A DNA stretch of 64,000 bases from Psammoneis japonica (taxonomy: Eukaryota): the NCBI GenBank assembly GCA_008632985.1, contig QPGO01000006.1, positions 617,138 to 681,137 on the forward strand, given 5' to 3'. Position numbers and translations under genes: made by a program. Below the pieces are notes generated by a model. That model was given only the letters and a program-made list of their open reading frames with translations, was not told where the DNA came from and searched no databases. Positions 27,000 through 64,000 of the stretch are shown in pieces. Position 1 is the stretch's first letter, and every line of letters starts with the position of its first letter.

Positions 27000-27480
27000 A
27001 AGTTCATGATCCACTTCCCAAGCTTTGGGGAGAGGCTTCCATGCAGTGGCTTGGCAAAGAAGTCAGCCATTATCTTTTCCCGTTCTTGGGCAGCATTGAA
27101 TCCCCTTGCACTTCTTCCTTGGCCTTTTCACTCTGCCGGTGATGAAGAAATGCGCAAGGGCTGAGTGCACGTCGGCCGCTGGATGCTTGCCCATTCTTCT
27201 TTGGTGGCACGGCACTCTGTTCATCTCAGCAGATGACACTGTCCTTCACATTGCACCCCTGGGCCAAAAGAAAGCTCCCCCCTGGCCCGCACACATCTTG
27301 GGTGTCCTCAGTGCGTTCTTGCTTTTGGCCCCTCTCATTCAACAAGTTTTTTGAATTTGAAAGTGGGATTTCATGGTTGTTGACAAGAGTTTTTCTGCTT
27401 TTCTCAAAGCCAGATGTGCCAACAACACTGTGAAGTTGCCAACAGCTGCCAGGTCTCTTTGTCAAATGCTTGGCAAGAGC
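27000..27480 (-). mobile_element. Ty1/Copia pol 3' remnant (RNase H)
   Basis: Minus strand reads KNGQASSGRR...HFFITGRV...IQCCP...IMADFFAKPLHGSL...IMN, matching Copia RNase H (YFFI.DR, YCPT, M.ADFFTKPLQG). Confidence 0.75.
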
Positions 27481-27559
27481 TCCATTTGGTGTGTGGCTCA
27501 ATTAGAGAGCTGGGTGGTGTGCTCAACAAGAGGGAGCTGCACAGGGAAAAACTGTGCAC

Positions 27560-29600
27560 ACAGCTCTGCAAGGCATTGGTGCTTCTGTTGAAACATTGGG
27601 GTCCAACAGACAGTTTTCACAGGACAGACAGACAGAGTTGCCACGCAAGAAGACAAACTGACGATTGTGGATGACATGGCAAGTGTTTGCACTCACAACT
27701 CCTTGGGTTGAGCTGTGGGTCTTGTGCTCCCTTTTTAGTGTCTGCCCAGTTGATGCAGTGGCAACAGCCACAGTGACAGTCATGTGTTTGCAAGCCACAC
27801 TGTGAGTTTGGAGACAGTGAGACCAAATGTGCGCCAGTTGCTGGCAGCAAGCCATGAAGTTCTCCAACAACACAGAAGCCAAAAAACAACGGCACGGTGC
27901 TCAAGAAAGCAGCAGTGTCATTCAAGGGCTGAGAAGTTGAGAGGAATTTGCAGAACATTGGCTGGAAAGTTGAGAGGAATCCACAGACAAGGGCTGGAAA
28001 GTCAAGAGGAATCCAAAAGGAAAAAGCCAGGAGGTGTCAACAGGAATCCAAAGGTGCAACTTGTGTCAGCAGATTGCAGCAAATGAGCCTGCTGGAGTGA
28101 GGGTAAAGACACAACAATCTCTGGTGAGCTTTGCTGTTGAAGAAGCTGTCAAGGGTCTGCTGCAGAAGGTTGCAGCAAGGTTGTGTCTGGGTTGGTGAGA
28201 CAGAGTGCACAACTGCTGGCAAGCTGTGGAACTCCAACACAAGTCCCAAGAAAGGTGTGGGCAAGGACACAGCTGGCCTGAGTGCAGGAGCACAAGTTAA
28301 AGGAGTGCATGCATGACACCATTGCCAAGTCAGAATGACAAGCAGATGAACACACAGAGACCATGAGGAAGATTGGCGAGTGTGTCAGAAGAATGTTTTG
28401 GCCAGAGATGCAGGTGTCAGCATCAAGCATCTCCCCTGAGGCAGGAGAGCATGCCAGGAGAGCTGGAGATCATCCATTGGGAGATGCCACATTGGAGAAG
28501 GATGAAGCAGCCTGTGGCATGTGAAACAGAGTGCACTCTACAAGATGCAGAAGGCAACGCCAGTTGTTGCAGTTGTGGGGCAATGTTCAAAGGTCATTCA
28601 TTGTGATCTTGAACAAGGAGTGATGGAGTTTGTGAGAGTTGCAAAGGAGTGGGACATGGCAGCACTGCTGGACATTCTCAAGCCAATCATGTTTGATGCA
28701 AATGAGAAGATGAACTCACATGTCCAGGTGGTTGAGGCTCAGAAGCAGTTGGCACTTGCTCATCAAGGTGAAAGAGAGGCACTTCAAGATTGTTGCAGCT
28801 GGTTTTTGAGCAAGATTGAAATGGCGCAAATGTCCTGTGGCAGGATCATCCAAGAAGAAATTTCCAAGAAAGAAGAGAGGTTCAGCAAGGATGCTGATGA
28901 CACCTGGAGTTAAGAAAGGAACAAGTTGTCAGCAGCGATGTTGATGGAAGGAGCCAAGGACTGTTGGCATGTCTTAAAAGACCTGCGTTGGTGGCTCACA
29001 TTGGGGGTTGACACACATGCCCCAATTCATTCGGCCAAGGAGACACTGCAGGTGTTGGGCACCTGCACACAGCACCAACAAGAAACCTGAGGGCACAGCA
29101 CAAGTTTTGCACAAAACAACTGGAAGATGACCACATGCTGGAAGTGCAACAAGGTTGACATGTCTCAGGAGGGATTGCCCTGACCCTGACAGCAATCATT
29201 TGTCAGTGGAGTTGGATGATGTGGACCATGGAAAGTGATGGAATGGTCAACAGGGTGTTGAGCGGCATGGTTTCCAAGTGGGATCCTCCTGTGCCAGATG
29301 CACATGAGGCCAGTTGATTGAGAACACTTGTGTCAAGAAGCGTGCTGGAACATTTGGGGTTGGAGGCAGTTTTTGCAGGACAGAGACCAACAGAGTTGCA
29401 GTGCAAGATGCATCAATGACTGATTGTGGATGACGCAGCAAGACTCTTGTGCTCACTTTTTAGCTTTTGCACATGGTTGACATGGCAGTGAAGGCTGCAG
29501 CAACAGTTGTGTGTTCATGAGCCACACGGTGAGTTTAGAGATGTCAAGACTGAACGTGTGCCAGCCAGCAAGCCACAAAGCTCCAACAGCTTCCCCCATC
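27560..29600 (+). mobile_element. Copia-type gag remnant flanked by direct repeats (about 27560-27870 and 29320-29590)
   Basis: AVVGQCSKVIHCDLEQGVMEFVRVAKEWDMAALLDILKPIMF resembles Copia gag. Both flanks share ...CTTGTGCTC(A/C)CTTTTTAG.... Homologous to 44040-45770 (-). Confidence 0.6.
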
Positions 29601-31030
29601 TCCTGCCTGCTTTCGACGCACAGATTGAGTGAAACCATGCCTCTCATCCCAGGTGAGACAGTGTGGCCTGTTCTGAATGACTGGCAACAATGGGGTGCAA
29701 GCAAAGTGTGAATGGTCCTTGCCACCAGCTGATTTTGACACTTTCAAACTCAGGAGCCATCCAGAAGTGTCGGCCAATGTGGTGCTCACAATCATCTCAA
29801 GCAACAGCAGGGGGCACACTCCATTCTTTAGGAAGACATCTTCACATGGCTGACCTTGCAGAGCATGTTCTGAAATTCTTTGCAGCAAACATGCATGAGC
29901 TGAGGCAAGTTGTCATCTTGAGAGTTGCCAGTCAAAAAACTGCATTGTCCACTGTGGCTCTTGGCGAAACACCATGGTGGATGAACTCAGAAGCTGGAGT
30001 CTGATGAGCAGCATTAGAGAAGTTGACACCACATGCAAGCCCCAGCTGGCAAGTCATCACAACAAAGACTGGGCTCCCAAAATGACATTTTGTGATCTGG
30101 GGCTCAATCAATGACAGCACACTCAGCACCAGTGCAGCACAAGCAGCCATGGCCACAATGTGCAGCAATTGTGAGGGGTGCAAGGGGATGGCACCATGCT
30201 CCTTTTGCTCATGTCTTGTGCCAATGTCTTCAGGCAATGTGCTGGGACAAAAGAGACACTTGGATGCTGTGGAAATGGGAGGGCCTGTGCTGCAGATGGC
30301 TGCTTGCCCAGCTGTTGTTGTGCATGACATGGAGAATGACTGACAAAGCAAACTCATTGAACAACTTGACAATTTCATTTGCTTTGCAGTTGGTTTTGAT
30401 GGAGTCAGAGGCACCCGCTTGGACTTGCAAGACAGACGGGAGAGTGCTTTCCAGCCCCCGCGAAGCAACTCCATGTGAGGTTTGAAGAACACATGCTGGG
30501 AGAGGTGGCCAGAGTGAGTGCAGGCTGCTTGCTTGTGAAGCCTGAGGCCTGCCCAAATCATTGCTGCAACACTCTCAGCCATTCTCATTCAAGATTTGCG
30601 TGGCTTTCCTGGGCACGCAACTTTGCAAGGAGCTTGGTCCACAATCTTTTTGATTTCCATGATGTGGGCAGAATCTGTCGCACACTTCATGGCAGAAAAG
30701 CTTCTGACAGATGGCATGGCACAATGTCTTGAGGTGGGGGCTGCTCTCCACAAAGCTCTCCTTGGGTTTGGTGCAGCTGAAATTCTCAAAAAAAGGACCT
30801 GGGTTGCACACAGCATCCGCGGTGTCTGGTGCAAAGGTTGCTCGGCCACAGAGGTGGGCACAGGCCGGGGGGTGAGAGTGCGTGGTGGCAAATGTGAACA
30901 AACATTGCAGCGGTGGTCTCTTTGTCATCAGTTTGGCGCCATGGTGATTCTGGGCACAAAAGTTGGTCTGTCGAGACTACGCAACTCCCTGAGATCAAAA
31001 AATGGGGAGACGCAAGCAAAGCAAAACACA
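29600..31030. other. TpA/CpG-depleted degenerate sequence (TE or mutated pseudogene)
   Basis: Composition only. Confidence 0.4.
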
Positions 31031-31039
31031 AACCGTCGG

Positions 31040-32478
31040 AAATGACTCATCAGACCAAACCAGATTCGTCGTCTGCCGTGGTCAGTGAATCAGAGCTCGA
31101 GTCATTCGTTGATGTCACCGTAGAATTCTACTCATTTCTGGTATTACAGTCTGCAACACGTGAGATGGCCGAGTCACGCGAGAAGCAAACAAACTACCAC
31201 ACTCTCACACTTTCACGCCCATTGATCTCACAATTTCGAAAAGCAGCCAAATAAGTCAAAACCACAAACCTACACCAAACTGACAACCCCAAAACATGAC
31301 CCTCAAGGCCTTCACTTTGTTCCTCACAACCATCCTTGCGACTTCCAGTGCCTTTACTTCTCCCAGTGCACCTTCATCTTCTTTCCGCACTTCACCACTC
31401 AATGCTTACGTCCCTGACGGCCTCACTGTCGAGCAATACCAGGAGATCAAGAAGCGAGACAACAGGTTCCAAGGCAAGAACCTTGGTGCGTTGGGACCAA
31501 GAGGCTTTAAATCAAGATCGATGCAATCCTGGCAAGAAGCGTACGAAAAGGGACTCACCGGCCACTCGATTGCTCCATTTGGATACCGCGAAAAGCTCAA
31601 GAATGGCGAAATTAAGAAACAAGACGTGCCATACATGGTCCGTGGTGGATCCTGGGATAATAGTGATGTCAAGGGTGCCAAGAGAAAGACATGGTTGAAA
31701 TCCGATGTCGAATACGCAAGGGGTGGATACAAGAAGGAACAATCTGTTTCCATTCTGGGATCGGGATTGGGATTCGACTGGACTGGAACAAGACCCCGAG
31801 AGGAAAACTTGAAGCGTGTCGTTCCAGGCCTCAGTTAGATTCTTGTCGTTGTTACAATTATAGAAATTAGATTATATGTCATTATAAGTGTCTTCTCGTC
31901 TTCAAAACTCAAGTCAGCTTTAGAGTAAGCAAAACGATATTGCGGTGTTATTCACCTTGTTCGTTTCACCCGAAATCTTTACAAGTACTCGTTAGTAGCT
32001 CCCACTTGCAACTTGCATCGCTGCATTGTTTGCCAAAAAGTATCTCTCGTTTTCTCTGAACTTGCGAGTCGTACTTCCTACTTCGTAACTTAGATCTGAT
32101 GACGCAGAAGCGGCCATGAAACACCCAAGACAGTTGTCACGTTGCTTCAGCACCCTTTGACAACACTAGCCTACATACAGTACAACATTTCAAATTAATG
32201 CAAATTCATTTTTGCCTTCTCTTGTCACTGCGAACTATTTCTGTGATTACCTAAACCGATCTATGACACGCCTGTACGAAAAACTTCGTTTCCGTCTCCA
32301 ATATGCTTGCTAGTTTGCCGGACTGAACGTGACGAGTGATTGGATAATACAAACCACTGATTCTGCCCACATGAGACTATTGACAACTCCTTCTCGTAGC
32401 CAAGGTTCCGTATCCCATTTCGGCAAGGACCATTGAATGCACGGAAGGGTGAAGAGGAGGGATCGTACAATTTGAAGC
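31040..32478 (+). repeat. Segmental duplication, copy 2
   Basis: See 24266-25636. Confidence 0.9.
31296..31838 (+). CDS. Conserved algal plastid-targeted protein of unknown function, copy 2
   Basis: Differs from copy 1 at three residues, all in the presequence. Confidence 0.85.
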   Translation: MTLKAFTLFLTTILATSSAFTSPSAPSSSFRTSPLNAYVPDGLTVEQYQEIKKRDNRFQGKNLGALGPRGFKSRSMQSWQEAYEKGLTGHSIAPFGYREKLKNGEIKKQDVPYMVRGGSWDNSDVKGAKRKTWLKSDVEYARGGYKKEQSVSILGSGLGFDWTGTRPREENLKRVVPGLS

Positions 32479-32555
32479 TGTTGGCTTCGAATAGCAACGC
32501 TCTGGTGGTGAAAATAGGCAGCTTAGAATGAGACGATGGATTTATTGGCGGCATG

Positions 32556-33218
32556 TTATTCAAACAAAACATTGCGTTCCACTTTGCTTACCTTATCATC
32601 ATTCTTTTCCTTGTACATTTCCCTCAGACTCAAGACACCCTGTGCCAGTTCGGCTGCAATGTACATGAGCCAGGCACGACACGACCATGCCGACAACCTA
32701 TTGGCATTGGTACGCTTGGTGACGGGGAACACATCGGGTGCCTTCCACTGAATATATGCCGCGTGTTCCAACGGATAATAAAGCACCATGCTCCAAGCCA
32801 TGAATTTTCCCAACAGATTCCTGAATCGACTACTACTTTTGCTATATGCATCATTCCTGGCGGCTTGGAGCGCCTCAGGCAATCCATACATGCGGAGAGC
32901 GTAGCGGACAAAGCTCAGTTCAGCATAAAACTTGTAGAGACCTTTTCTCTTTTTGTCCGAGAGTTTTGTACTGACAAGCCACATGGTCCACTGTAAAAGC
33001 TTCAATCCCTTATCTTGATTCAGAGGACTCGACATGTACTGTACATAATTCGCCAAGAACTTGTCAAAACGAGATTGCACCTTGGATGCAGGTGGCTCAA
33101 GCAGAACATCCTTTTTCGGCTTTTCGCCCTTGACCTCGAAAAACAAATCGGCACTGCCTTTGGAGGCGCCGCTGTTTTCGCTCCCTTCATCCAACAAGAG
33201 TGGCTCGTCACCGGACAT
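32556..33218 (-). CDS. PEX11: PEX11-family peroxisomal membrane protein (possible intron 32591-32522 extending the CDS to 32261)
   Basis: NQDKGLKLLQWT, LSFVRYALRMYG, LYYPLEHAAY and LSAWSCRAWL resemble PEX11 motifs. A GTAAGC donor and CTAAG acceptor are in frame with ORF 32261..32572. Confidence 0.7.
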   Translation of the reverse strand: MSGDEPLLLDEGSENSGASKGSADLFFEVKGEKPKKDVLLEPPASKVQSRFDKFLANYVQYMSSPLNQDKGLKLLQWTMWLVSTKLSDKKRKGLYKFYAELSFVRYALRMYGLPEALQAARNDAYSKSSSRFRNLLGKFMAWSMVLYYPLEHAAYIQWKAPDVFPVTKRTNANRLSAWSCRAWLMYIAAELAQGVLSLREMYKEKNDDKVSKVERNVLFE

Positions 33219-33599
33219 GGCTAAGGACTATGCTTACGGCAACAACAACACTGATGGGTGTTGGCTTGTTGTTGTGTGGTATGTGGTATGATATGTCGAC
33301 GCGTTCCCCTGCAGAACCATCGCATCATGACATTGGAGGTGTCAAAACTGGGTCGTGGCTTGGTGGTGACGCGCAAGAGCACGACGTAGAACTCTACGCA
33401 CTTTTGATCCGGGATGTGAGACGTAGCCACGACTGACAAGATGAACCACTTCCACAGCATGCAGTTTTCGCGACCACACAGCGCAGAGCTCCACCGGTGC
33501 TGTAGATCGGACAGCATCTTGAAGCGAAATGGGGTGGCGAGACAACGGACTGTGCATTGCATTAAACTCACATTTCATCACGTCAATGTGCAATCAAAT

Positions 33600-36500
33600 T
33601 GCATGCCACACAACATTGGCACCAAGCCACACGTGGCTCTGTTTGCCACTTCAAATGCTGCGAGCTCCTCAGCCTCACAACAAAGCCTCTCATCACACAG
33701 CTCTCAAAAACTTGATGGGAGTGGACTCAATTGAATGTTTTTTTTCCAACAACATGCACCCTCTGTTTTCTTGGTTGCATTCTTCCAGTCCATCCTGGCT
33801 TTGGCAAGAAGAAGCTTGCTCGCTCAGCTGCTCTCTTGTGTGAGTTTTTTCGACCATGCCAAATGCAGCAGCAGCGGAGACCTGGACATGTGAAAAAGAG
33901 GGGGCAGTGCACATGCACAGAAAAAACTGCAAAAAGATCAGCCACTCCAAAGCTTTGCCTCAATGACCCACCATCAGCTTTGTTGCATGTGGTCGTGTCA
34001 TTGTGCCCGTGCCATTGCTGCTGCACAAAACGCCAGAGCACACTGCTTCATCCACAATGGGCATGGCAAGTTGCCAGCCACTGCTGTGCATCATTTTGAG
34101 GCACAGCAGAGCCATGATGCAAGGCAGAGCAATGCTGCATTTGTTCATTGATGCCAGCTGGCAGTCTTGGAAATTTGGCCATGTGAGGCAAGAAGTGGCC
34201 CAGCTCAACCCGTGGTTGATTTTGTCACATGCTGCAACCACTGTCATGATTGACAACTTGAGACATCATGGTGCCATTTGAAGAAGGCTGCGGTGCTGTG
34301 CATGATGCTGTGGCAGAGCAAGCCAGAGTTGGCACCACTCCTCAGGTGTGAAAACATTTGTGAACTCTGATGGACAAAAGACTTGAGATCCAGAGCTCTC
34401 CCACAAAGTCAGGTGGCAGGGTTGAGGAAGACAAATGGCTGGCTGGAGTCAACCAGCATTCATGCCAAGGACAGTGTTGCACAGAAATGATCTGGTTTTG
34501 CATCATTTTTGCACTGGGCTTCCACCATGTTGTTGCTTGTCTGCCACTTGACTTTGCTTCAAACATTTCTCCATCATGGAAGACAACTTTCAAGCTGATG
34601 TGCAGTCATTTTCCATGCTGCAGCAAATGGAAAGTGTGATGCAGCCATGGCCAACAACAACAAATTTCCCAAATCAGTGGGAGAGTCTGTGTTGCTGGTG
34701 CATTCGCTCCAAACAAGAAGGAAACAAGCAACTGTGTGGATCTTTCCAGCCAGCATCATCATCATCTCATTTGTTGGCTTTGAAGGAAGCTGTGTGCAGG
34801 ACATTCTAAAACAGAAACAGGAGAGAAAACAACTTGCTTGCACAGCAAAGGGAACGAATCTGTTTGAGGACATGGATGACTTCATGCTGTGCACAGTTGT
34901 TGCAGTTGGAGCTGGCTGTCATGCCAACCCAGCTGGAGTGTCTGACATTGGCACAGCCAAAATTTGGGATCTTGTTGGAGAAAATAATTTGTGCAGAGCA
35001 ACAGTTTGAGCACAGCGCTGTTTTCAGGAGACAGGCTTGCCATTGGATGTCTTCAGGGTGCAGCAGGCATTGGCGGTGCTTTTGTGCAAGCCCAGAGACA
35101 CTGTTGATGATGATGCCAGCACAGAAAACAAAAAACACATCCACAACAATCCTCCTCCACCAACCTTTCCATCATGCTTCTTCAAACAATTTGGCAGCAG
35201 CAGCTCTGTGCAGGCCAATGAAAGCCTCACACCAGCTCAATGCTGCAGCTCTAAAGTGAGCCCTCATGCCCTCACTTCTTCATGGAGGATGAAGGTGTGT
35301 GCATGTGTCATGTTCTTGCATTTGCAAGCATTGCATTGTGACAGTTTTGTGTCTCCAGAGGATGTTGCCAATGGTGCACAAAGAAGAGGAAAGCATGGAT
35401 CAGGAGTCCTGGTTGGAGAGTGTCTCTGATGACTGGGTCAAGTGTTTGTCTGCTGACAATGAGCCAGAGTCTGCTGTGCAGAACACAATTGCTCAACTTG
35501 TTCTGTTGGAGATGACAAGGGTGGGGCTTCTGTTGAAAGTGTGGCAAAGATGTGCAAGAGGAGCAGGTTGACTCCAGTTTGGATGTGTGGTGGGCACAAA
35601 TGATTTGAGTGCAGAAGATGCAGAAGAGCTTCATGACACAATTGCTGTTCTGAAGCATTTGCAAGAATGGTTGCCATTTGAGGATGTTGAGTTTCAACTT
35701 CAAGAGACAACAAGTGTTCTGGATGATTTGTGTCAAAAGATTGAATGAACAAAGGGAAAAAAAAAATTTAAAGTGCTGCTGCACCTTTGCCCAGCAACTC
35801 TGGCACCAGCTGACCCACACTTCCAGTGCACCCTGTGTGAGGGGTGAAGCAGAACTTCATGCAAACAGCTGGTTGTGGTGCCTCCAGATGGAGACGCCCA
35901 ACAGAAATGAAAGGAAGCAAAACATTTGGATGCCTGCTTGAGACAAATGGGGTTGATGCAGCAACACATGGAGGAGATTGTTGCTTTCACATGGACTGGA
36001 GATGCATCTGCCATGCCAGAGCAGCAAAGAACAATCACTTTCAGAGTTTGTTTTGGGAACAGCAAAGGGAAGGAAGTCAAAACATGATGATTGCCAAACC
36101 ACTGGCTGCCTCCAAGAAATGCAACAGCAGAAAAATCATTGCATGCAGCAGGGAGCTTGATTTGCTGGCAAGTGAGGGAGGGGTTGTCCATCCAGGACTG
36201 GGAGACAAGAAACAAATGGGAGCACTTGATGATGTGACAAGTTGGTCATCGGGAACAATGTTTTTCACACACAGAAACCATGCCGGATCTTGCACAGAAA
36301 TGCTGACATGTGCAGCAAATGGAAGACAGTCAATTGGTGCCAAAGGAAGGCTTGCACTCACACTTTTGTTTTGGTGCCACAACAGAAGCAGTGCTTTCAC
36401 CACATGTGGTGAAGGACTTCATTGGCCAATGGGAGCAAAGAGAGTCATTGAAGACAGATGAGTGTGGGCACAAGAAGCTCCGAGATTTGAAAACAAATTC

Positions 36501-52508: not shown

Positions 52509-55463
52509 ATGGGCAACAACGCTTCACTCGAGAGCTTGTCGACGGAGGACGTTGCCAGAGCCGTGGCAGGACAGGGAAAAAACTTTGAGAAGTATGCAGA
52601 GTTGGTTCTCGATAATGGCATTAGTGGTGATATTCTGGTCGACATTGAAAACGAAGATTTGGCAGAGATATTCGATGAGTTGGACGTCAAGTCTAAGCTA
52701 CACCGCCGAGTCTTGACCAAGCTTCTCGAAAAGGCACGAGCTGTGAGTGTTTCGCCGGAGATTACTCCCGAGGGCGAAGCAAAGTACAAAACCGAAATTA
52801 CTCACTATCTTGAAGCCATTCCCCAGAAGGCCATGAGCGAAGACCCGGCTATTCTTTATGCTGGAGTGCATCTAATCGTTGACGAGAATAGTGTGGTCCC
52901 GATTGGTGCTCTTGCTCGACAGTCTGACGGATCGCTTGTCGCAGATAAAAGCTATATTGATAAACTCCAGTCCCCTTGTCCTGCGCTTGCCATCAATGAC
53001 AAGAATGAAACGTTGGTGACAAAGGTAGACACAGAAATGAGCGATGGTAGCTTGGAGTATAGAGGGGTTGTACTACACGACAAGAATAATGCGAGGATCG
53101 GAACTGTATGCGCTTATTACAAGAGAATGTCAGGAGGGGGTACAAGCTGTTCTGAAGAGTGCATTAACGCCAGTCTGGAGCTTTTGGCTGGTCTAGCCAA
53201 AATGGCTGAGGAATGCATGCAGGAGGGAAAATCTTTGAAGAAGAAAAGGGAGTCGATGATCGCTCAAGTAGAAGGCGAGCTTTTGGGGAAGGATCCAGCA
53301 GGTGAAATCCTGATTCCCGGGGTAGAAAGTGAAGACCTTCCACCAGTGACATCATCCGACGTAGCAGCATTGGTCTCTAGTCGCAAGCAGAAGGAAGGAG
53401 AGGAGTTTGATACGCAAAAGCTAAAGGTTGCTACGGAACATGTAGCAACGGAGGAACAGCGTGCTCATCTAGGCGCAAGCTTCTTTGAAGCATTCGATGC
53501 ACTCAAGTTGAATCGTCCTCCGGTTCCCGACCATGATCTGAAAAGATGTGCATCAGTTGAAGCCCTAGCGCTCCAGGACATCCAGGCTGATGACCCTGCG
53601 CTTGAAAACTTCAATCGATTGCTCAAAATGATTCAGCGCCTATTCAAGTGGTCTTATGTTCGCATTCAGATGGTGAGCCATTCTCGCGTTTATTACTTCT
53701 GCGAGGTGTTTGACGACGACGTTTCAACAAACTTCAAGGACTTTATCTGCAATGCTGGTGAAGCTCTTAGTTTCAATAAGGATGGTAGCACTTTGGTAGG
53801 AGTGATGCCACGAAAGTACGCGTTTATGTGCAACTACGTCGTTAACGCGTCGCAGGTCTTTGTGGTTCCAGATGTGGCCAACGACGTTGCATTTTCAGAA
53901 TACTACAAAGGTACACCTGTTCAAGCATATCTCGGAAACCCCATCCTCAACGAGCAAGGAATGGTCGTAGCGGCAGTTACAATGATTGATGAAAAGCCGC
54001 GGTATGATTTTACCAAAGCCCACGAAGTCCACTTGACGAATGTGACATCCATTATCGAACAAACCATTGAAAACTGGTCGTTACGACACAACATGAAGAA
54101 GCTTGAAGATGAGCGCCTATCCCTTACTAAACGCCTCTTGGTCACAAAGGTTGGTCCACCAGAAGAAGAGGCTGCCATTATCTTTACAGATGTTCAAGGA
54201 TCGACTTCACTCTGGGAGGCAAACGCAGAGGCGATGGAAGCTGCGCTCAAGATCCATGACACGATTATGCGACGCTGTATTGCTGAAAAGGATGGGTATG
54301 AAATCACTACGGAAGGCGACGCGTTCCAGATCGCGTTTCATAGTCCCGTTGATGCCATTGCGTTTGCGCTCATGGCTCAAATGGAACTTTACAACGCAGA
54401 ATGGCCTGCTGGGATTCTTGAACACCCCGACGCATGCGCCGTACCAAATCGTTCATTTCACGGTCTTCGAGTTCGAATGGGGATCCACTATGGTCCGGTT
54501 TTTACGACGGTACATACCGGGACGGGAAGGACTCGGTATATGGGCGAGACTGTCAAGATAACCAAAAGCACCGAAGGCATGTGCCACGGCGGACAGATTA
54601 TGGTAACAGAGGATGTTTGGCGTTCTGCATCTGGCATGAGGGAAGCCTTTGGAGTGGCTCCACAAGTCATTGATCTCGGAGTTCACGTCATGCTGACGGG
54701 AGGACAAATCACAGATGGGGTGATCGCCAAGCGTGTGTTCCAGTTGGTCCCTGGTCCTGTTGCTTATGACTACTTTGGGACGAGACGTGAGGAAGCGTTT
54801 ACGTCGGGCAATGCCGAGGCTAGCGTAAAACGAATGTCACTGGGCGCTTCTTCGAAGGGACGACGCTTCCCGCCGCCGATATCGAAGGGCCAGCTTTCCA
54901 AGTCCTTCCACGATGCTCACACAACTGACGGGAAAGCAACGTTTGTCTTTGTTTATCCAGTAGGATTAAAAGGTCTTAGCGGAGAGACGGAGTTAAATGT
55001 TCTGGCGACGCTAGGAAAGTCTGTGAGGTCAGCACTTAACGATTTTAATGGCTACGAATGCAAAGAAGAAAATGGCATGTTCTTCTGCACTTTCGCGACC
55101 GACTTTCCCGCGGTTCAGTTCGGTCTGTCGCTGCTGGACCATCTTGCTGGCCTCCCACAAAGTCCCAGCGTAGACTACAAGAGATTGGTGAAAGTTGGAG
55201 TTCATTCTGGCGAGTTTAGCTGCTGTGGGCCGCACGCTGTTACAGGCCGTGCCGATTACTTTGGTTGTGTCGTTAACCGAGCAGCACGTGTAGCCGGAGC
55301 AGCCGAAACGAACCAGGTTTGGCTCGGTACCGTGCCAGATGGTTCCGTTGCGATGGCTCCGGATCACTTCGGAGATCTGATCACAACTAAACTTGAGGGG
55401 GTCAGACTTCTAAAGGGAGTAACGGAGGAGATGGCATTGTTTTCTTGTTCTTGGACTTTGTGA
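52509..55463 (+). CDS. Soluble class III nucleotidyl (likely adenylyl) cyclase: SAM-like + GAF + two cyclase domains
   Basis: SAM-like DNGISGDIL...LDVKSKLHRRVL; GAF CNYVV...FVVPD...AYLGNPI; cyclase 1 FTDVQGSTSLWE, TEGDAF, GLRVRMGIH; cyclase 2 ECKE, VKVGVH, GRADYFGCVVNRAARV. Confidence 0.9.
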   Translation: MGNNASLESLSTEDVARAVAGQGKNFEKYAELVLDNGISGDILVDIENEDLAEIFDELDVKSKLHRRVLTKLLEKARAVSVSPEITPEGEAKYKTEITHYLEAIPQKAMSEDPAILYAGVHLIVDENSVVPIGALARQSDGSLVADKSYIDKLQSPCPALAINDKNETLVTKVDTEMSDGSLEYRGVVLHDKNNARIGTVCAYYKRMSGGGTSCSEECINASLELLAGLAKMAEECMQEGKSLKKKRESMIAQVEGELLGKDPAGEILIPGVESEDLPPVTSSDVAALVSSRKQKEGEEFDTQKLKVATEHVATEEQRAHLGASFFEAFDALKLNRPPVPDHDLKRCASVEALALQDIQADDPALENFNRLLKMIQRLFKWSYVRIQMVSHSRVYYFCEVFDDDVSTNFKDFICNAGEALSFNKDGSTLVGVMPRKYAFMCNYVVNASQVFVVPDVANDVAFSEYYKGTPVQAYLGNPILNEQGMVVAAVTMIDEKPRYDFTKAHEVHLTNVTSIIEQTIENWSLRHNMKKLEDERLSLTKRLLVTKVGPPEEEAAIIFTDVQGSTSLWEANAEAMEAALKIHDTIMRRCIAEKDGYEITTEGDAFQIAFHSPVDAIAFALMAQMELYNAEWPAGILEHPDACAVPNRSFHGLRVRMGIHYGPVFTTVHTGTGRTRYMGETVKITKSTEGMCHGGQIMVTEDVWRSASGMREAFGVAPQVIDLGVHVMLTGGQITDGVIAKRVFQLVPGPVAYDYFGTRREEAFTSGNAEASVKRMSLGASSKGRRFPPPISKGQLSKSFHDAHTTDGKATFVFVYPVGLKGLSGETELNVLATLGKSVRSALNDFNGYECKEENGMFFCTFATDFPAVQFGLSLLDHLAGLPQSPSVDYKRLVKVGVHSGEFSCCGPHAVTGRADYFGCVVNRAARVAGAAETNQVWLGTVPDGSVAMAPDHFGDLITTKLEGVRLLKGVTEEMALFSCSWTL

Positions 55464-55521
55464 CTGCATTGTGGGAGAGGGTGAAAGGGCAAAAAATCCA
55501 TCTTCGATTTTAGCAGCACGC

Positions 55522-57312
55522 CTATGCCTGTCGGCGTTGGAGGTTGACAAGTTTCTGAAAATTGGCTTCGCCCATAACTTCATATAGGTGCTGCATTTGC
55601 TCTTGTCTTGTCGAAACTTTGGCTTCGTGAACTGAATTGATTGCAACTTTGTATAGGGCGTGCAATGCTTTGCTTGTGTTGTCCTCCGATGAAGCAATGT
55701 CTACCGCCATTCGAAAGGACTCTGCGGCCATTTTCCACTGTTGCTGCATTGCGTGCGCACCTGCCAAACTGAACCGTGCTTGAAAATGGTTGGGATCCAG
55801 TTTAAGGGCGCTTCTGTAGTATTTTAGTTCCGTTTCATAATCTCCCTCACTAAGCACTCCCAAGTTGCAGTAGGCAAATGCCCTAGCTTTTGTCGAAAAT
55901 CCAGGAGTCTGAATTATCTTTTCATAACAATTTCGTTCACCTTCCGTGTCTAACAAGAGCACATATCAAACGGTCAAAAAAATCAAAGAGCGTGTCAGGG
56001 ACTTGCAAATGCTGAACTCACCTCCAAGATTCGCACACACGTGAGCGTACGCCATCACTGCGCTTTCGTCCCCATCATCCACCTCCAAGCAGAGACTTAA
56101 ACACTCCTTGGCCTTTTGATAGTCTTGTTGGTCGACGCATAAAACCCCAAGACTATAAGCTACTAATCCGTTGTATGGGTTGACGTGGCGCAAACAATGA
56201 TTTAACACATCCATGGCCTGTTCATTTTTCCCTTGTTTTTGCAAGACATTCGCCAAATGGGAGTAGGCGCCATCAAAATTAGGATTCAGCACTAGCGAGG
56301 CCGTGAGTGCTTCTTGCGCCTCCTTGTATTTTCCTTGCTCAGCCAATTCCGCTCCCAATCCAATCAACATGCGAACGTATTCCACCTTTTTCCTGTGCAT
56401 GCAAAAGCCACCAATAATATATCTGGTGCCACTCGTCACGGCATGTCCGCAATGTCTCACGCCCCCGGGTCGGACCGTGACATGACCTTGCTTCATTTCA
56501 ATCAAAGAGTCCTCGACTGGTTTACCATTCACCGTCAAGCCTTCAATCCACGTGCCACCGCCCTCGTAGTCTCCTCCCATTGCAATTGTAAAGCTAAGGC
56601 AACCGCTATCTGTGTGAATTTCTGTACGTTTTCCCGTTTCGGTTGTGTATTTGAAGAGATACGAACTGTCCACAACAAGGTCCTTGTCGGAGCAAAAGTC
56701 GGGAAACTGCTTGGCCAAGAGAGGAAATAGCCGCGTCTTTACCATTTCATTGAACCATTCGTGAACTTGTGGAACGTCCTTGATCCAGAATCCAGCCACA
56801 TTGTACTGACCAGACGGCAGCTTGGTCCATTCACCACCATGGTGTTGAGCAAAGTAGTCATTGGCAGCGCGAATCACGTGTTCACATTCCTGCGGTTCAA
56901 ACAATGGAGTTGCTTCTGTATCGTCCTCTCCTGCAGCACCCCTCGTGACAAAAATGGTGTTGCCCAGTTCTCCTTCGAAATCAGGTAACGTCCATTTTGA
57001 ATCTTTGCGACTGCAAACACCATAGGTATCCAACTCAACCTTTGGAGGACTCGTTATCGTACCGTCCTCTGGTGTCGTTTCTTGAGCAGACCAATAGGCA
57101 TCTCGTGCCGCTTGAACATTTTCCATATGACGTTCTTTTGCCCGATTCATGTATTTCTGCACCGTCTCGCGATCCATGGACTCGAGCCATTTGGGTTTGG
57201 CGTTTTGAGACGCGCCACCTCGCGTCTTCAAAAAGGGTCCATCTGACAAAATACTGCCATGGCCGGTTGTCAAGAGTAGTGGTCCGACCGCAAGCGCAAA
57301 CAATCTCGTCAT
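55522..57312 (-). CDS. Secreted/organellar 2OG-Fe(II) oxygenase with C-terminal TPR repeats; intron 56021-55950
   Basis: Signal peptide (MTRLFALAV...TRGG); HTDSG...YEGGGT...RHCG...GTRYI; TPR repeats. An in-frame GTGAGT...TTAG intron links ORFs 55966..57426 and 55522..55962. Confidence 0.85.
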
Positions 57313-58245: not shown

Positions 58246-58749
58246 TGTGAGATTGCTTCAACACAAAAGGCGCGGATGGACACCGTTCTGAAAAATCGTT
58301 CTTTGTGGTTGTGGACAAAAACAAAGCGAAATGGCGAAAGGAAATTGCAGCATGTGAATAAGCTAATTTCCCCCCTACCTATTGAAACATTCGACTTTTT
58401 TTAAGAGACTTCTAAAATGGTAGGACACTGAAAGTTATCGCTACAGCAATGCACTGCGTAAGACAAGTGTGGACAGAGGATACCGACCGGCTGACGTCCT
58501 GCTGCATATGACAAGAAAGTCCACAGTACAACTGATTTGAGGCCGTCGATTGTCGTCAACACACTACGAACAAAAACTCTTCAGATTGTTTGCACCGTCA
58601 CCATGCACGACCAGGATGAGTGCCATTTTTTTATAATAAATAGAGGAGTTCCTCTGGGTCCAGAGTCACCCATTCTACCTGTCTTCGGGAACACCACACT
58701 TGTTTTAGGCAAACATCGAAAAGGCAACCACCGCAATCGCCCAAAGGAT

Positions 58750-61700
58750 GAAAGGGCCATGCCAACAGATGAGGAAACACACCCACTCACAGACGATGTG
58801 GTGGGTCGGTCGGACTCTCCCTGGGTGCCAAATCTGCGGCAATCTTTGATCCCACAATCTTGGCCAAGGAGTTGCAACTGAGGCAATCCAACACACCCAG
58901 CATGGGCATGATTTGTCTGTTTTGGGCATTGATGATTTCACCCAGCAGAGTGTCCCACATGATGCAATCATTGCACTTGTCATTGGTCAGGTCATTGCGC
59001 GACAATTTGTTGGTCTCTTCAACAGAGCCTTGGCCATGTTTGCAGCACTCTGATGGTGCAGAATCATTTGGCAGATGTGGAGGCCACCTTGCATGATGAA
59101 AAGTTCTTTGCCTCCTGCTGGGCATTGTTGGCGCCAACAAAAACAATTGCTTTGGGGCACCCAGCATTGGGGAGTTCAAAGCAGTCCAGGTCAAAAAGGC
59201 ACCACATGCCTTGTCAAAGGTTCCAGAAACACCACAGTCACACCCCTTGTTGAAGCATCTTAATCTGAAATGTTGTGAGGTACCTGGATGCATTGAAGAA
59301 AAGATGCTTAAACTTCAAACATGGCTTGCAGAGTGACTCTCTGTGAGAGTGGAGTTTCACCATCATTGACCTCTCACCATCATTTTTCATCTCACTCTTT
59401 GGAGTGAATCCCTTGGTTTGCATCATTTAATGTTTGGCATCAGCAGGTGCCTGTTGTTGTGCAAGTTTGCAGTTCACACATTGATGTCATTGGCAACCCC
59501 CACTGCAATTGCAGGTTGCCAATGCAAGTGTGTTGAGTGGCAAAGGAAGTGTGCCAGGACTTCTTTTTGGTGACACTGACTTGCCAACTCAACATTTGCT
59601 CCAAAGAGTCATCAGCACTTTGTTCAGAGCTTGCAAACAATGACCCACACACAGTTGATTGAATGCCTTCTCTGCACAATGAATGGCCGAGGAGGTGGCA
59701 ATCATGACAACCAAAAATTTCATCCTTCATCCCTGAACAGTGACACTTGCAATGTGCTGCTTGAGCAGATGCAAGTGGAGAATTGCGGAAACAGTGCAGT
59801 GCTCAGGTTGCTTTGACAAACCCCATTGTTGCCAAACCCACAAGGATGACAGGTTGCTTTTTGCATCATTGGCTGCAATGTTGAATGCAAAATCAATGAT
59901 TGAAAGACACACATCCTCATGTCCAACATTGATGGCATGTCAATGGTCAATGACACAATGCTTGAGTCATTTCATGAGTGTCTGCATGGATCAGCCAACA
60001 CACTCCATTCTTGTGATCAAACACACTGCACTCATCCAATGAAACGTCAAATGGATCACCACTGCTTTGGCCCTCTGGAGCAATTGGTTTGTGTTTAAAA
60101 ATGCAAGCGCAGGTGAAGAATCAGTGATTGTGTGAGCAACCATGGGACCAACATGGCAATTGCCACAAAAATCAATCAACAACAACAACCCATTGCACAG
60201 TTCACAATGCCTGCTCTGGGTGCATGATGAACATCACAGTGCAGCGGCTCTGACAAAGCAAACAAATGCTGCCATGACAGCAAAGAATTGGTTGACAGAC
60301 AAAACAGAGTGTCAAACAGCATCAAGAGGTTCCAGAGCCGACTGTGTCAGCAACAGCAGGCCAGTCCCCAACAGCAAATGTCTGCCTGTGATTGTGACAT
60401 TGTGTGCCAGCATTTGCTCATTTTCTCACATGGCCAGCATGCAGAACAAGCACAGCCTTTGGACCAAGTTGTGTGGATGGCAGACAGCTCTTGGCAGGTG
60501 AAGCATCATGCCACATCATCATCAATCACATGCAAAGGGTGTGCACCATTCCCTTTGCTGCCAACCACCTTGGCTCTCTCTTGGGCACTTTGTGCCCACC
60601 AACTCCTCTTTGACAGTCTTTTTGTGAATCCCCATTTGGTTCCAAAGACTTCAAATTCCTCTTTTCAGCAAGCCAACAAGCACTGCCTGTTTCCATTGAG
60701 ATGAACTCCCCCCAACAAAAAGCCTTGCTTCTTTCAGCAACTGCTGTTTGGAAGTCTGTCACTGAAGTGTGCTTGTTTAAAAGCCACTCAACACTTTCTG
60801 TGCCCCCTCTTCCATTTGGGAGGAGGCTCACAAAACAAGGAAGAGCACAACAGCATGTCTGGCTGCATTGTTTTGGTGTGCAAAGCTGTGCACCAATGAG
60901 TGTGACACTTGATCTTTTGGCAGATTGCAAAGCCAACAAAAAGCACAAGAGTTTTGCAGTCATGGGCTGTTTGTCATGGGCATGCACAAAGTTGAGCTGG
61001 CTGACTGACAAAGAAAATTGACACAGAAGAAAAATGCAGCAGATGCAGGAATCTGAGCTGTCAGATGCTTTGTGGGGATTGGCAGTTGATCAAATTTAAG
61101 TTGAAGGATTGTCCTCACCTGTTGGTCTGTCCCTTTTCCCATGGATTGGCTTTTTGCATCATGGCCACAAATCATCACTCTGTGTGGTTGAAGGGCTGCA
61201 ACCAACCTTCCGCCAGCGTGCATTTTGCTGTTGCTCAGCTGAAAAGGTTTTTTTGTCTGCATTTCTAAATGCTCAATTTGCACTGGCAAAGATTTCAGCA
61301 CACCACAATTTTGCCCCCCCCCCCCCCAAGAACGGGACCAAACTCATTTTCTTTTTCAATGAAATTGGCAAATTTTTTTGAAGCCCAGCAACTTGCATGA
61401 CAAGAAGGAAGCACAAATGCCTGGGGCACACTGACCGGGCATGGCATCCATCAAAAAGGACACAAGCCACAACTTGCTGTGTGGCGCAATTGTCAGGTTC
61501 TTTTGCAACATGAGCCTGGTCAACTGCAGCACCAGTTTCAGAGAAACAGCAACAAAGCACAACAGCAACTTGTGCCATTGCCAATGTCCAAACTCGCTGT
61601 GTTCAAAAATTGCAGCATGAAGATCACCAACAGATGCATGTGCTTGTCCCGCCATTGGCCCAATGTTCTTCACATTTTCTTTGTCAAAAGATCACAAAAA

Positions 61701-62300
61701 ATGGGCTGCATCAAATTGGTGAAATTCATTTCTTGTGTGCACTTTGAAAGTGCTTTGGCTGTTGAGGTGTTGCGCAGATCAAATGAAGTGCAACAGGTGC
61801 TGTGCTGTTTTTTGTCTTTTGTTGTTCTCATTCATTGCACACAATGCTTGTCAATGGCAACAAGACCTTCCATTTTTGTGTGTGTCCAGAATCTGATAAA
61901 AAGTTGTCAGCATGCATGCAATTTTCTGAGTGGTTGTGGATGTCCAGCCACAGGAATTTTAAAAAACCACCATCTTTGTGACAGCTGACCAACTCTTGCT
62001 GGCAATCACCATGTGCTGCTGTCCATCAACTGGCAACACCCCCTGACAATTGTTTTCAGTTGCACCAGTGCTTGGCAACAAACAAAATGGGTGCAAACGG
62101 GTGAGAAAATGGATGCAGGTGAGCACAATTGGGTGCAAATTGGGCACAACTGGGGTCACTGTAAAAAGCCAACAATGACCACACTCCACCAAAAAGCTTT
62201 GCAGGAGTGCTCAACAGTCAAATGTGTTGCTGGGTTAAAAGACATGTGTCATTGTCAAATGCCCTGCAGCTGTTGTGAGTTGTCTTCATTCAATGGCAAA
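58750..62300. mobile_element. Degenerate TpA/CpG-depleted repeat block, unassigned
   Basis: Composition only; contiguous with the Copia remnant. Confidence 0.45.
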
Positions 62301-63746
62301 TTTCACAACTGTTTGACATCATGTGCCCAAGTTGTGTCCAGTTTGTGTCCATTTTATTTGACCTTGTTTGCAGCCATTTGTGCAACAGTTGGGGGTCAGC
62401 AAAAAATCCACATTGAATGTGATGCCATGCCATGATTTCAGTCAGACCCACCATTTTACATTTTTGCACACACTCTTGCACAACAGTGTCTCCCAACTTC
62501 TCTCTCAACCTGACCTGCAATGCATGATGGTGCTGCATGTTGGAAGAGCTGTGTCAGCCCACAACACAGATGCTGCCACAAAGGCAAGCCACTGGCATGC
62601 ATGCAACACCATCATGCACTGGCACAATTCACAAGGTCATCAGTTTTCATCACTTTCCCATTCCATTGCACTGCCACTCTTCTGTCCACAACATTGTGCA
62701 ACGCATTTGTGGTGTCAGCATCATGTTTGGGGACAAAATTCCACAGCCCATCACATGCAGGGGAAATTTGATGCCAACTGCAATGGGAAAAGATCATCAT
62801 TTTGTTGGCTGAGTCAATCAAGCTCAAGTGGCTTGGCAAGAATTGTTTCAATCAAATGGTTTGCATGGCTGCAGGCTGTGACACCATGGGAACTGCTGCC
62901 ATTTGAGGTGTGCTTTTGCACTTCTTGTTGCCCTTGTTCTTTTGCTTCTTTGACAGAATGCTCACATGCTTCTTGCCCTCTTTTAGCTCCTCAACACAGT
63001 TGAAGAGTTTTTGGCTTGGAGCAAATGTGTGCAGTCTGATGTCACTGACCTTGAACACTGCAACCTTCTCCCAAGTCTTTTGATCTGGCATCTGGAACTC
63101 ATCCACCACTCAGTCATCACAAGTCACACAGCACTTGTTTTTTGTGTCCTGCAGGCCAAGGACATTTGCCATGGCTTTGTCCAATCCAAGCTGCATGTCT
63201 CTTAATCCTGGTGTTGTGCAGTCTTCATGCACTGGAGTGTCTCCTGCATCAGTTGACAGGTCAATCTTGATCCTTGCTGGCTGCATGTTGTGCACTGCTT
63301 TCTGACTTGCCACCATGCCAAGGGCAGAGCCATTGTCAAGGATGATCTCATCCAAATTGATGCTTGCATTGGCTTGAATCATGCTTGCCTCTGGTCTCAT
63401 GGCAACCAGCTGCATTCTGTGCCATGCAGCACCTCTGCTTCAGCCAGAACAGGCAGATTTTGATTAGATCTGGTGGTGTTGATGCTCACATTGTTGCTGT
63501 CCACCAATGAATTGTCAACATTTGTGCCTTGCATCTGTGCATGGCTCTTTGCCCTGACGTCCATTTTTTTTTTTTTCAACGTTCTTTCACCAAAATTGTC
63601 ACAAGCAATGTCACCTCTGTGGCCACATTCTGGGGACTTGTGGCCCTTCATTCCACAACAGTGACACATCAGTTTGTCACTCTGGTTGCTCTGTTGAGCA
63701 TGACTCTGGTCCTTCTGGATCTCTTGTTCAGTGTTCCAGTTGCCGC

Positions 63747-63781
<35 letters not shown>

Positions 63782-64000
63782 GTTGTTGTTGTTGTTCATT
63801 CCTGTCATTTTGGTTTTGATCATTTCTTGCAGAGGCACTCCATTGTTTGAGAAGATTGTTGTCCTTTGGATGGTCAAGCAGTTTGTCCATCACCTTGTCT
63901 GGGGTTCAAGCAGCAGGCATCCCAACCCAGACTGCAGTCTCTCACAAAGCTCTTCTTCAGGCTCTTGCAAAAGTGACCATCACTGTTCCCCATGAGCTGG
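62300..64000 (-). mobile_element. Ty1/Copia gag-pol remnant (zinc knuckle, aspartic protease, pre-integrase)
   Basis: CHCCGMKGHKSPEC zinc knuckle; IILDNGSA...LSTDAG...AMANVLGL...KNKCCVTCD matches the Copia protease region (ILLD..S, ANILS, KYRVTYD). Confidence 0.8.
63748..63796. repeat. (GTT)n microsatellite within the Copia gag region
   Basis: Read directly from the sequence. Confidence 0.95.

Follow-up and report, generated by a model that had tools for sequence, protein, structure and literature searches.

Almost all TpA dinucleotides have been lost from ten segments of the 64,000 bp stretch of contig QPGO01000006.1 analysed here, referred to throughout as the window. These segments probably represent transposon-derived or otherwise repeated DNA in which TpA has been hypermutated in place to TpG or CpA, to an extent that depends on the flanking bases, with CpG decay added in some of the segments. 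The change runs from TA to CA or TG, is restricted to pyrimidine-purine (Y-R) steps, has acted after integration, is contained within domain limits and follows a hierarchy of flanking bases. The window was treated as diatom-like nuclear DNA on the basis of its open reading frames (ORFs) with eukaryotic domains and of a PARG ORF, the best database relative of which is a protein of the diatom Grammatophora oceanica (51% identity).

TpA-poor domains

Over large stretches of the window TpA is present at 0.00–0.11 of expectation in 2 kb and 500 bp bins, and CpA and TpG are at 1.6–2.1 times expectation, with a GC content of about 0.48 throughout. The TA-poor DNA was delimited by a two-state hidden Markov model (HMM) based on TA occurrence alone. 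The ten segments found in this way add up to 34,745 of the 64,000 bp, have observed/expected (o/e) ratios of 0.01–0.11 for TA and are of two classes. The five class B segments, all in the 27–64 kb range considered in the initial annotation, have a CG o/e of 0.10–0.22 as well. The five class A segments are located at 4.3–20.5 kb, outside that range, and have a CG o/e of 0.38–0.72.

4256–5421: class A, TA o/e 0.08, CG o/e 0.38 (HMM)
7354–9128: class A, TA o/e 0.05, CG o/e 0.72; with 4256–5421 flanks the PARG ORF (HMM)
10063–12772: class A, TA o/e 0.07, CG o/e 0.54 (HMM)
13341–14542: class A, 1 TA in 1202 bp, CG o/e 0.61 (HMM)
14871–20514: class A, TA o/e 0.11, CG o/e 0.51; holds GGTACG, with the R at 15490 (HMM)
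27072–31120: class B, TA o/e 0.05, CG o/e 0.22 (HMM and TA+CG density)
33564–40482: class B, 13 TA in 6919 bp, CG o/e 0.14 (HMM and TA+CG density)
43189–46123: class B, 4 TA in 2935 bp, CG o/e 0.21 (HMM and TA+CG density)
49151–52201: class B (HMM)
58707–64000, reaching the window end: class B, holds GGTACC at 59279–59284 (HMM)

None of the ten segments has lost CpG without losing TpA. Since class A keeps much of its CpG, the two losses are separable, and the loss of TpA is the more complete of the two. The total of Y-R steps in each flank class (N-[YR]-N) is the same in TA-poor and control DNA, and the segments thus resemble normal DNA whose TA and CG have been rewritten to CA or TG. The initial annotation had argued against generic GC-biased drift, which is indeed ruled out: GC is 0.488 in the TA-poor DNA and 0.468 in the remainder of the window, and the change, limited to the two self-complementary Y-R steps, leaves the purine/pyrimidine skeleton intact.

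The host ORFs are spared and the edges of the domains are sharp. The PARG ORF (5539–7062) lies between two TA-poor segments, one of which ends 118 bp before it and the other of which begins 292 bp after it. Likewise, the class B block starting at 49151 lies 66 bp past the stop codon of a 2OG-Fe(II) oxygenase ORF (47919–49085, + strand; PF13640, E=5e-15).

Flanking bases of the residual TAs

The blocks of the initial annotation, as delimited by TA+CG density, are at 27201–30850, 33551–40450, 43101–46100, 49151–51950 and 58751–63950. These 21,550 bp contain 59 TA and 168 CG, with CA and TG at about twice expectation. The residual TAs are distributed as 39 Y-TA-R, 19 with mixed flanks and 1 R-TA-Y, against 19.1, 29.0 and 11.0 expected from the N-T and A-N dinucleotide frequencies of the blocks themselves (chi-square p=6e-8). 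A tally by eye had suggested two thirds Y-TA-R and no R-TA-Y in the first two blocks, which is what was found (17/25 and 0/25 at 27.2–30.9 and 33.6–40.5 kb), and the lone ggtacc reported near 59280 is the sole R-TA-Y of all five (GGTACC, 59279–59284). The window DNA outside the blocks has the opposite tendency, with 201 Y-TA-R, 541 mixed and 301 R-TA-Y among 1043 TA.

The same bias is seen when the HMM segments are compared with the rest of the window, both for R-TA-Y (2 of 123 against 338 of 1197; Fisher p=2.8e-14) and for Y-TA-R (69 of 123 against 239 of 1197; p=1.2e-16). Class A, which lies beyond the coordinates of the initial annotation, is an independent replicate of the flank bias: its 65 TA are 32 Y-TA-R, 32 mixed and 1 R-TA-Y (p=2.9e-8 for R-TA-Y). 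The 58 TA of class B are 37 Y-TA-R, 20 mixed and 1 R-TA-Y (p=3.8e-7). Of the 13,251 TAs counted in 73 relatives of one of the elements that are themselves unmutated, 19% are Y-TA-R and 30% R-TA-Y.

A further normalisation is the ratio TA/(CA+TG) for each flank class within the TA-poor DNA, which is the proper denominator if the creation and loss of TA are at steady state. This ratio is 0.063 for T..A, 0.038 for C..A/T..G, 0.015 for C..G and 0.003 for G..C, falling to 0/961 for A..C/G..T and 0/394 for A..T; the remaining flank classes are between 0.038 and 0.003 (0.021, 0.012, 0.012 and 0.005). Two TAs are left in R-TA-Y flanks against 1,942 CA/TG steps. A uniform ratio would, by our own arithmetic, predict about 31 R-TA-Y and 27 Y-TA-R, where 2 and 69 are seen. 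The R-Y-R-Y skeleton is equally common in TA-poor and control DNA, therefore the shortage of R-TA-Y is not due to too few sites. The count of all 16 N-TA-N tetramers against controls, which had been proposed as the check, leaves the contrast between R-TA-Y and Y-TA-R in place under normalisation by the flanking dinucleotide frequencies of the blocks, by the rest of the window, by the unmutated relatives and by CA+TG.

Most of the residual TAs are in TTA or TAA (99 of 123). CTAG is absent among the residual TAs of the 27–64 kb range, although it is a Y-TA-R context, occurs six times in class A and is among the commonest contexts in L043, a metagenome contig described below. In a strand-symmetrised table of TA-poor against control DNA, position -1 of the residual TAs is T in 54% (control 22%), C in 24% (24%), G in 15% (29%) and A in 7% (25%). 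Position -2 is T in 51% against 28% in the control (p=1.5e-6), and positions -3 to -5 show no significant bias in this table. A run of T before the TA, or of A after it (TT-TA / TA-AA), is therefore protective, a C at position -1 is neutral and a 5' purine sensitises. The proposal that Y-TA-R resists and R-TA-Y is lost holds as a hierarchy of R-TA-Y < mixed < Y-TA-R and is a fair first approximation. As a rule it is incomplete, 'Y' being too coarse a class when T at positions -1 and -2 protects and C does not. A sequence-specific process had been proposed on the same grounds; the strongly non-random residual TAs and the dependence of TpA loss on the flanks agree with this, whereas the assignment to the A of a TAY strand does not follow.

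Loss of tyrosine codons in a transposase-like gene

The direction of the change can be read at the protein level in one gene of the class A DNA.

13410–16879, - strand: transposase-like gene with ORFs at 14883–16442 (519 aa) and 13620–14618 (332 aa), in class A

This gene belongs to a large unnamed family with 1,142 relatives at E <= 0.001 and proteins of 600–1100 aa, and is present in a single copy in the window, as found by tblastn with 168 family proteins. It is termed transposase-like from the size of the family and its copy number and from DDE-type motifs. Some members of the family carry SAP and no other Pfam family; Pfam searches of five unmutated homologues found no family except SAP on one of these, the protein has no sequence match among solved structures, and its motifs were found in no paper of the literature searched. 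The two ORFs are separated at 14619–14882 by a TA-containing insert related to 12678–12868. They are retained at 519 and 332 aa despite the near-total loss of tyrosine codons.

Tyrosine makes up 0.3% of the C-terminal ORF, compared to 2.8–5.6% in 19 homologues. At the 19 conserved tyrosine columns (Tyr in at least half of the homologues) the window copy has His at 8, Cys at 8, Leu at 2, Phe at 1 and Tyr at none, the His and Cys codons being CAY and TGY. Other replacements include Ile to Met (ATG), Arg to Cys, His or Gln, and Val to Ala (GCA). Among 86 differences at conserved columns, reversion of CA/TG to TA/CG undoes 31, against 10 for a control rule applied at R-Y steps. A short repeat points the same way, in that 4 TA and 4 CG in the copy at 17130–17230 correspond to CA or TG in the class B copy at 38511–38614, with no case of the reverse. 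This indicates that the change runs from TA to CA/TG. For polarisation of the residual TAs in the ORF, 12 of 17 sites span a codon junction, where the ancestral third base is synonymous.

Change in place in repeated DNA

Several repeats of the window allow affected copies to be compared with one another or with unaffected DNA.

27586–29578, + strand: repeat element with direct terminal repeats (27586–27878 and 29445–29578) and internal part 28278–29420, multi-copy in the source reads
44041–45751, - strand: second, inverted copy of the terminal-repeat element, 69–71% identical in four letters and 86% in purine/pyrimidine letters
24261–25617 and 31035–32437: direct segmental duplication of 1.3 kb, 81–89% identical, not TA-depleted, 91 transitions and 55 transversions
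9242–10451, + strand: tandem array of six to seven units with a period of about 183–193 bp, straddling the edge of a TA-poor domain
17130–17230, + strand: less-mutated copy of a short repeat, compared with the copy at 38511–38614

Repeat copies in the window are 69–80% identical in four letters, yet 86–95% identical in purine/pyrimidine letters. In the two copies of the terminal-repeat element (28278–29420 and 45411–44254), 52 of 204 CA/TG steps are doublets, where one copy has CA and the other TG. Such doublets are to be expected where the same TA or CG has been resolved independently in each copy, or where a step has passed repeatedly through TA or CG. The unaffected 1.3 kb duplication has none (0/145). 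Transitions outnumber transversions by 434 to 116 in the block pairs, compared to 91 to 55 in this control duplication, and the transitions per site are 0.27–0.29 at Y-R-step positions against 0.11–0.24 elsewhere.

The terminal repeats of an element of the long terminal repeat (LTR) type are identical at integration. Within each of the two elements here, the terminal direct repeats differ by doublets at 10/40 and 13/27 CA/TG steps (23/67 together), which must therefore have arisen afterwards, and this argues against an RNA-editing route. The mutation acts on integrated DNA, in place. In 9 of the 10 segments CA and TG follow one another in near-random order, long single-strand runs or tracts were not seen, and each strand carries TG and CA products in equal measure. 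The 52 doublet sites form 19 runs where 26 are expected (P=0.025), a weak effect upon which nothing has been built.

In the tandem array, the number of TAs per copy falls across the domain edge as 8, 8, 7, 7, 4 and 1, and CG is steady at 7–8. One G-TA-C site has become CA in one copy and TG in another, and both products are also found at T-TA-T, T-TA-C and G-TA-A. An (AT)n-like stretch near the start of the unit differs from copy to copy (ATACACA, ATGTGTA, ACACACA and others). The short dispersed repeat, possibly a miniature element, is found in both orientations at 12678–12920, 14527–14900, 17130–17418, 19945–20043 and 38511–38629; its class A copies keep TA and CG, and the class B copy has lost them.

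It had been assumed that the blocks are made up of transposable elements. Their multi-copy parts in the reads agree with this, as does the presence of the terminal-repeat element in two copies, whereas Pfam found no domain in the 98 ORFs of at least 90 aa in the five blocks, the two weak sub-threshold matches (Prominin and DUF5904) being taken as chance. Comparison with a protein atlas placed the ORF at 28506–28910 nearest to unnamed Bacillariophyta clusters (0.96), with Retrotran_gag_2 at 0.80 as a weak lead and not a finding, and gave nothing for the ORF at 35841–36458 (best 0.79).

Loss of CpG

The conversion of CpG to TpG or CpA is confined to the class B domains, where the CG o/e is 0.10–0.22, and is absent where the loss of TA is complete in class A and along the tandem array. 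Its flank preference is opposite to that of TpA loss: Y-CG-R is the most depleted (TCGA, and ACGA/TCGT) and GCGC the least. The loss of CpG is thus probably a different and slower process, most simply the deamination of methylated CpG. Decay of methylated CpG does not account for the whole pattern, as the loss of TpA in class A and in the array is independent of CpG loss.

Support from sequence reads

One read run, X1, contains 0.98 of the sampled words of 46100–56000. Contigs built from its k-mers (k=31) cover 27001–47000 at a word depth of about 60–69 with 0–12 differences each, one example being a contig of 7,511 bp on 36690–44197 with 6 differences at a depth of about 67. Long exact contigs at this depth are unlike the strand-discordant miscalls that occur at modified bases. 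No contig of a further run, X3, was placed on the window, and run X2 covered 8 of 30 bins.

The summed read depth reaches about 1,100–1,900 at 28335–29001, 35672–36338 and 43676–45009, and of 1,264 contigs placed, 598 are less than 90% alike. These depth peaks and divergent contigs mean that the blocks consist in part of dispersed repeats. Much of the block sequence is single-copy at a likeness of 80% or above, and this sequence may represent old repeats. Differences among the contig copies on the blocks amount to 681 transitions and 314 transversions. Among the 40 differences listed, beyond which there are 957 further rows, 22 are of the locus's own contigs, and all 9 of these inside TA-poor segments pair CG (8) or TA (1) with CA/TG. 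The affected sites are therefore still variable at the locus.

Occurrence beyond the window

A metagenome scan with the alignment of the transposase-like family identified 80 loci, with a median TA o/e of 0.69 and a median CG o/e of 0.74. All three windows with a TA o/e below 0.15, among 889 windows of 500 bp, are in the 2,806 bp contig L043, the protein of which is 38% identical to that of the window copy and has His and Cys at the same conserved tyrosine positions. Its 48 residual TAs are 24 Y-TA-R, 22 mixed and 2 R-TA-Y (p=1e-5 compared with the 73 unmutated relatives), with CTAG (7) and GTAG (7) as the commonest contexts. The downstream part of this contig (1601–2806) is CpG-poor as well. 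Among the 168 family proteins from public collections, five have 1.1% Tyr or less, and four of these have raised Cys and His.

Four other loci, L039, L053, L055 and L067, have a CpG o/e of 0.03–0.26, a TA o/e of 0.44–0.48 and a GC content of 0.39–0.42. These are cases of CpG decay alone, as is expected for methylated elements in other hosts.

Proposed explanation and alternatives

The process proposed would consist of T:A to C:G transitions at the TpA of integrated DNA, on both strands, in repeat-rich domains. The loss of TpA is fastest in R-TA-Y, intermediate in mixed flanks and slowest where T precedes and A follows, above all in TT-TA / TA-AA; the TAs that remain would then reveal, at steady state, which sequences the process prefers. 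Decay of CpG to TpG or CpA forms a second and separable layer in some of the segments. The survival of R-TA-Y is below 1%, against about 0.15 differences per pair at sites that are not Y-R (own arithmetic), which means that the loss of TpA in a sensitive context has outpaced background change by roughly two orders of magnitude. Background transitions on the approximately 5,000 CA/TG steps would, again on our own arithmetic, exceed the number of TAs present, which suggests that removal has continued and that the residual TAs are at steady state.

The chemistry is a separate matter. The putative agent is a dedicated enzyme aimed at silenced chromatin. There is a real chance that the pattern reflects a new enzymatic activity on duplex DNA. 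A tentative form of this suggestion is that some diatoms have a natural, chromatin-targeted enzyme that would edit A:T to G:C at TpA in duplex DNA with a preference for R-TA-Y, as a mutational defence against transposons, perhaps coupled to or identical with the removal of CpG. Two candidate chemistries would fit the sequence pattern equally well, deamination of adenine at 5'-TA(Y) or modification of thymine at 5'-(R)TA. This is because TAY on one strand of the duplex is RTA on the other, and the adenine and thymine routes predict the same pattern of survival. The near-symmetric products and the effect of position -2 suggest instead that the influence of the flanks may be exerted by way of the TA step as a whole, through its shape or opening, and not as a strict trinucleotide on one strand.

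Several points weigh against hypermutation by a dedicated process. The blocks lack a recognisable transposon protein domain. Read run X1 may be the assembly's own source, in which case its agreement lends no independent support. The estimate that about 72% of the TA+CG lost in Y..Y flanks reappears as TG assumes that the ancestral composition was like that of the control DNA. The choice of product where it could be polarised (T or A changed) is near even, and a strictly strand-specific TAY enzyme would differ from this. Residual TTA could in part be new TAs made by C to T change at TCA and not survivors. The data come from one window, a single contig beyond it and five database relatives that are poor in Tyr.

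A target of about 5'-TAY had been proposed initially, and an adenine deaminase of the TadA/ADAT kind acting on the A of this triplet in DNA would be a sub-case of the hypermutation proposed here. It is a possible mutator, though a doubtful one. The order of survival is as it would predict, with R-TA-Y, which presents TAY on both strands, almost gone and Y-TA-R, which presents it on neither, surviving best; the estimate of about 72% TG fits as well, as do two polarised sites (C-TA-T to TG and G-TA-G to CA), and the natural site of TadA is U-A-C-G. The same order would result from RTA with the T changed, and the polarised cases are mixed: the tyrosine codons of the transposase-like gene that are preceded by Y have become His in 3 cases and Cys in 3, where mainly Cys would be expected, and the array sites T-TA-T, T-TA-C and G-TA-A gave both products. 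In addition, a TAY rule does not predict that T at position -2 matters or that C and T at position -1 behave differently. TadA/ADAT enzymes, the fold of which carries zinc-binding H(C)xE and PCxxC motifs, act on tRNA or RNA, and no deaminase family was matched among the 14 window ORFs scanned with Pfam. Modification of the thymine of 5'-(R)TA in silenced DNA by an enzyme of the TET/JBP type, giving 5-hydroxymethyluracil (5hmU) or 5-formyluracil that mispairs with G and so leads to T to C change, would be a somewhat unlikely source. The pattern of survival to be expected from it is that of the adenine route, and the T of TpA and the 5-methylcytosine of CpG would both be 5-methylpyrimidines. The precedent is from dinoflagellates and not from diatoms: 5hmU silences transposable elements there and replaces T preferentially in TA and TC (PMC11572971). 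The only 2OG-oxygenase ORF of the window (47919–49085) matches PF13640 and has no TET/JBP family match in Pfam. The flank preferences also differ between the two losses, with R before the T in TA loss and Y before the C in CG loss, and class A has lost TA without CG.

The residual TAs need not be survivors at all if the old TAs were removed without regard to flanks, and TTA/TAA remade by a cytosine deamination that prefers a 5' T (TCA to TTA) and that would also remove TCG. The 99 TTA/TAA among 123 residual TAs, the enrichment of T at position -2 also, and the depletion of TCGA and ACGA/TCGT above all other CG contexts in class B are consistent with this, and about 0.15 background transitions per site per pair on approximately 5,000 CA/TG steps would exceed the TAs present, such that many would be young (own arithmetic). 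New TAs placed without regard to flanks would however be about 25% R-TA-Y from the CA+TG pools, so a flank-dependent removal is needed in any case. There are 63 TTAR and 36 TTAY, where the TCAN abundances give about 48 and 51 (hand arithmetic; chi-square ~17, 3 d.f.), 24 residual TAs are not TTA/TAA, and the commonest contexts in L043 are CTAG and GTAG; this alternative is thus unlikely. Far less probable is the editing of A to I by an ADAR-like enzyme in double-stranded RNA of the elements, followed by reverse transcription into new copies. ADAR prefers a 5' U and some of the affected repeats look LTR-type, but the terminal direct repeats of one element differ from each other by doublets (the 23/67 steps above), the TG and CA products are equal on each strand, and the affected DNA includes a transposase-like gene without a detected reverse-transcriptase domain, the tandem array and entire intergenic stretches. 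ADAR favours a 3' G, which is protective in the window, and ADARs are not known outside animals. An artefact of sequencing or assembly, for instance through wrongly called modified bases, is equally hard to credit, and so is an origin by GC-biased conversion or by selection on composition instead of mutation. Long reads can be miscalled systematically where bases are modified, and X1 may be the assembly's own data. Against this, k=31 contigs of up to 7.5 kb at a depth of about 67 reproduce the TA/CG-free sequence, the change of Tyr to His or Cys is also found in an unrelated metagenome contig and in database proteins, GC is almost unchanged, and the doublet pattern and excess of transitions are mutational signatures.

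Three further candidates were rejected. GC-biased conversion does not agree with the unchanged GC, and selection at the RNA level against UpA/CpG does not agree with the affected non-coding stretches and with an o/e as extreme as 0.02. For ultraviolet photoproducts, a dipyrimidine rule could fit Y-CG, but it makes Y-TA sensitive, the opposite of the data.

Comparison with known systems

Mutational defence of genomes is known from fungi as a change of cytosine to thymine. Repeat-induced point mutation (RIP) of ascomycete fungi is the closest functional analogue of the hypermutation seen here, with dense dinucleotide-specific transitions in integrated transposon or repeat DNA, neighbouring genes that are spared, and copies that differ mostly by transitions. 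In RIP, which depends on a cytosine methyltransferase of the RID/DIM-2 type and on a premeiotic stage, C:G to T:A changes occur mostly at CpA and create an excess of TpA and a deficit of CpA/TpG. The shift in the window is the opposite, as TpA is destroyed (o/e 0.01–0.11), CpA/TpG is at about twice expectation and GC does not fall. A linked 1.3 kb duplication (81–89% identity) is left untouched here, and duplication alone may not be the trigger; long single-strand runs are not seen.

TCG is reportedly a hypermutated context in basidiomycetes. The class B changes resemble such decay of methylated CpG, in that CpG goes to TpG/CpA, TCGA and ACGA/TCGT are hit hardest, and the polymorphic sites are mostly CG against CA/TG. 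The CpG systems leave the loss of TpA unexplained, which is more complete here than CpG loss and occurs without it in class A and the array. CpG hypermutation of transposable elements in basidiomycetes is the subject of Horns et al. 2012 (PMC3318451).

TadA/ADAT and the adenine base editors derived from TadA in the laboratory share with the present pattern the outcome A to G and the requirement for a T 5' of the edited A, and differ from it in the near-symmetric choice of products and the effect of position -2. ADAR and APOBEC act on RNA or on single-stranded intermediates before integration, giving strand-coordinated clusters. The likeness is that mobile elements are hypermutated through the deamination of bases, with a preference set by the nearest neighbour; here, the change is post-integration, falls evenly on both strands and affects a gene without a detected reverse-transcriptase domain. 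Changes of the APOBEC type (C to T at TC/CC in strand-coordinated clusters) were not found, the main change being at TpA and the order near random in 9 of 10 segments. Nor were changes of the ADAR type, made before integration on the transcript strand, given the terminal-repeat doublets and the equality of TG and CA per strand. The dinoflagellate 5hmU has in common with the window a thymine modification on transposable elements with TA/TC preference, in a related eukaryotic supergroup, but it is an epigenetic mark, and the part of the paper used here makes no link between it and T to C hypermutation (PMC11572971). As a lead only, like the dinoflagellate 5hmU, proteins that combine deaminase, SAM and tudor domains and are restricted to stramenopiles are mentioned in Iyer et al. 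2011 (PMC3239186). Beyond fungal RIP, virus dinucleotide bias and ADAR, a full-text literature search found no report of combined TpA/CpG hypermutation of transposons in diatoms or elsewhere, bioRxiv supplements and non-open journals being outside its scope.

The removal of TpA by T:A to C:G change in place, over tens of kb and with a flank selectivity of two orders of magnitude, would be a second chemistry of mutational defence. If enzymatic, the enzyme would act on adenine or thymine in duplex DNA. We know of no natural enzyme that edits adenine or thymine in duplex DNA, and genome engineering has, to our knowledge, so far used only laboratory-evolved deaminases. The novel reading, if true, would mean that a base editor for adenine, or for both adenine and cytosine, exists in nature as a mirror image of fungal RIP. 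The measured flank hierarchy serves as a fingerprint with which candidate enzymes or DNA modifications can be compared in tests. The affected elements lose tyrosine codons and TAA/TAG stops and retain long false ORFs. They escape domain searches (0 Pfam matches in 98 ORFs) and nucleotide-level repeat finders, as copies drop to about 70% four-letter identity yet stay 86–95% alike in purine/pyrimidine letters.

Other features of the window

The long intron-free ORFs of the window are those for PARG, thioredoxin with cNMP-binding, MBOAT, the 2OG oxygenase, guanylate cyclase with SAM, and TPR. A TA-rich 66 bp tandem repeat is present at 22995–23146 in normal DNA, with a TA o/e of 1.34 in its 500 bp bin, about 4 kb from a TA-poor domain. 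Within the blocks, the + strand has an excess of purines at 28001–29000 and 36001–39000, with a GC skew of up to +0.26 and an AT skew of up to +0.19. This excess is not explained by the choice between CA and TG.

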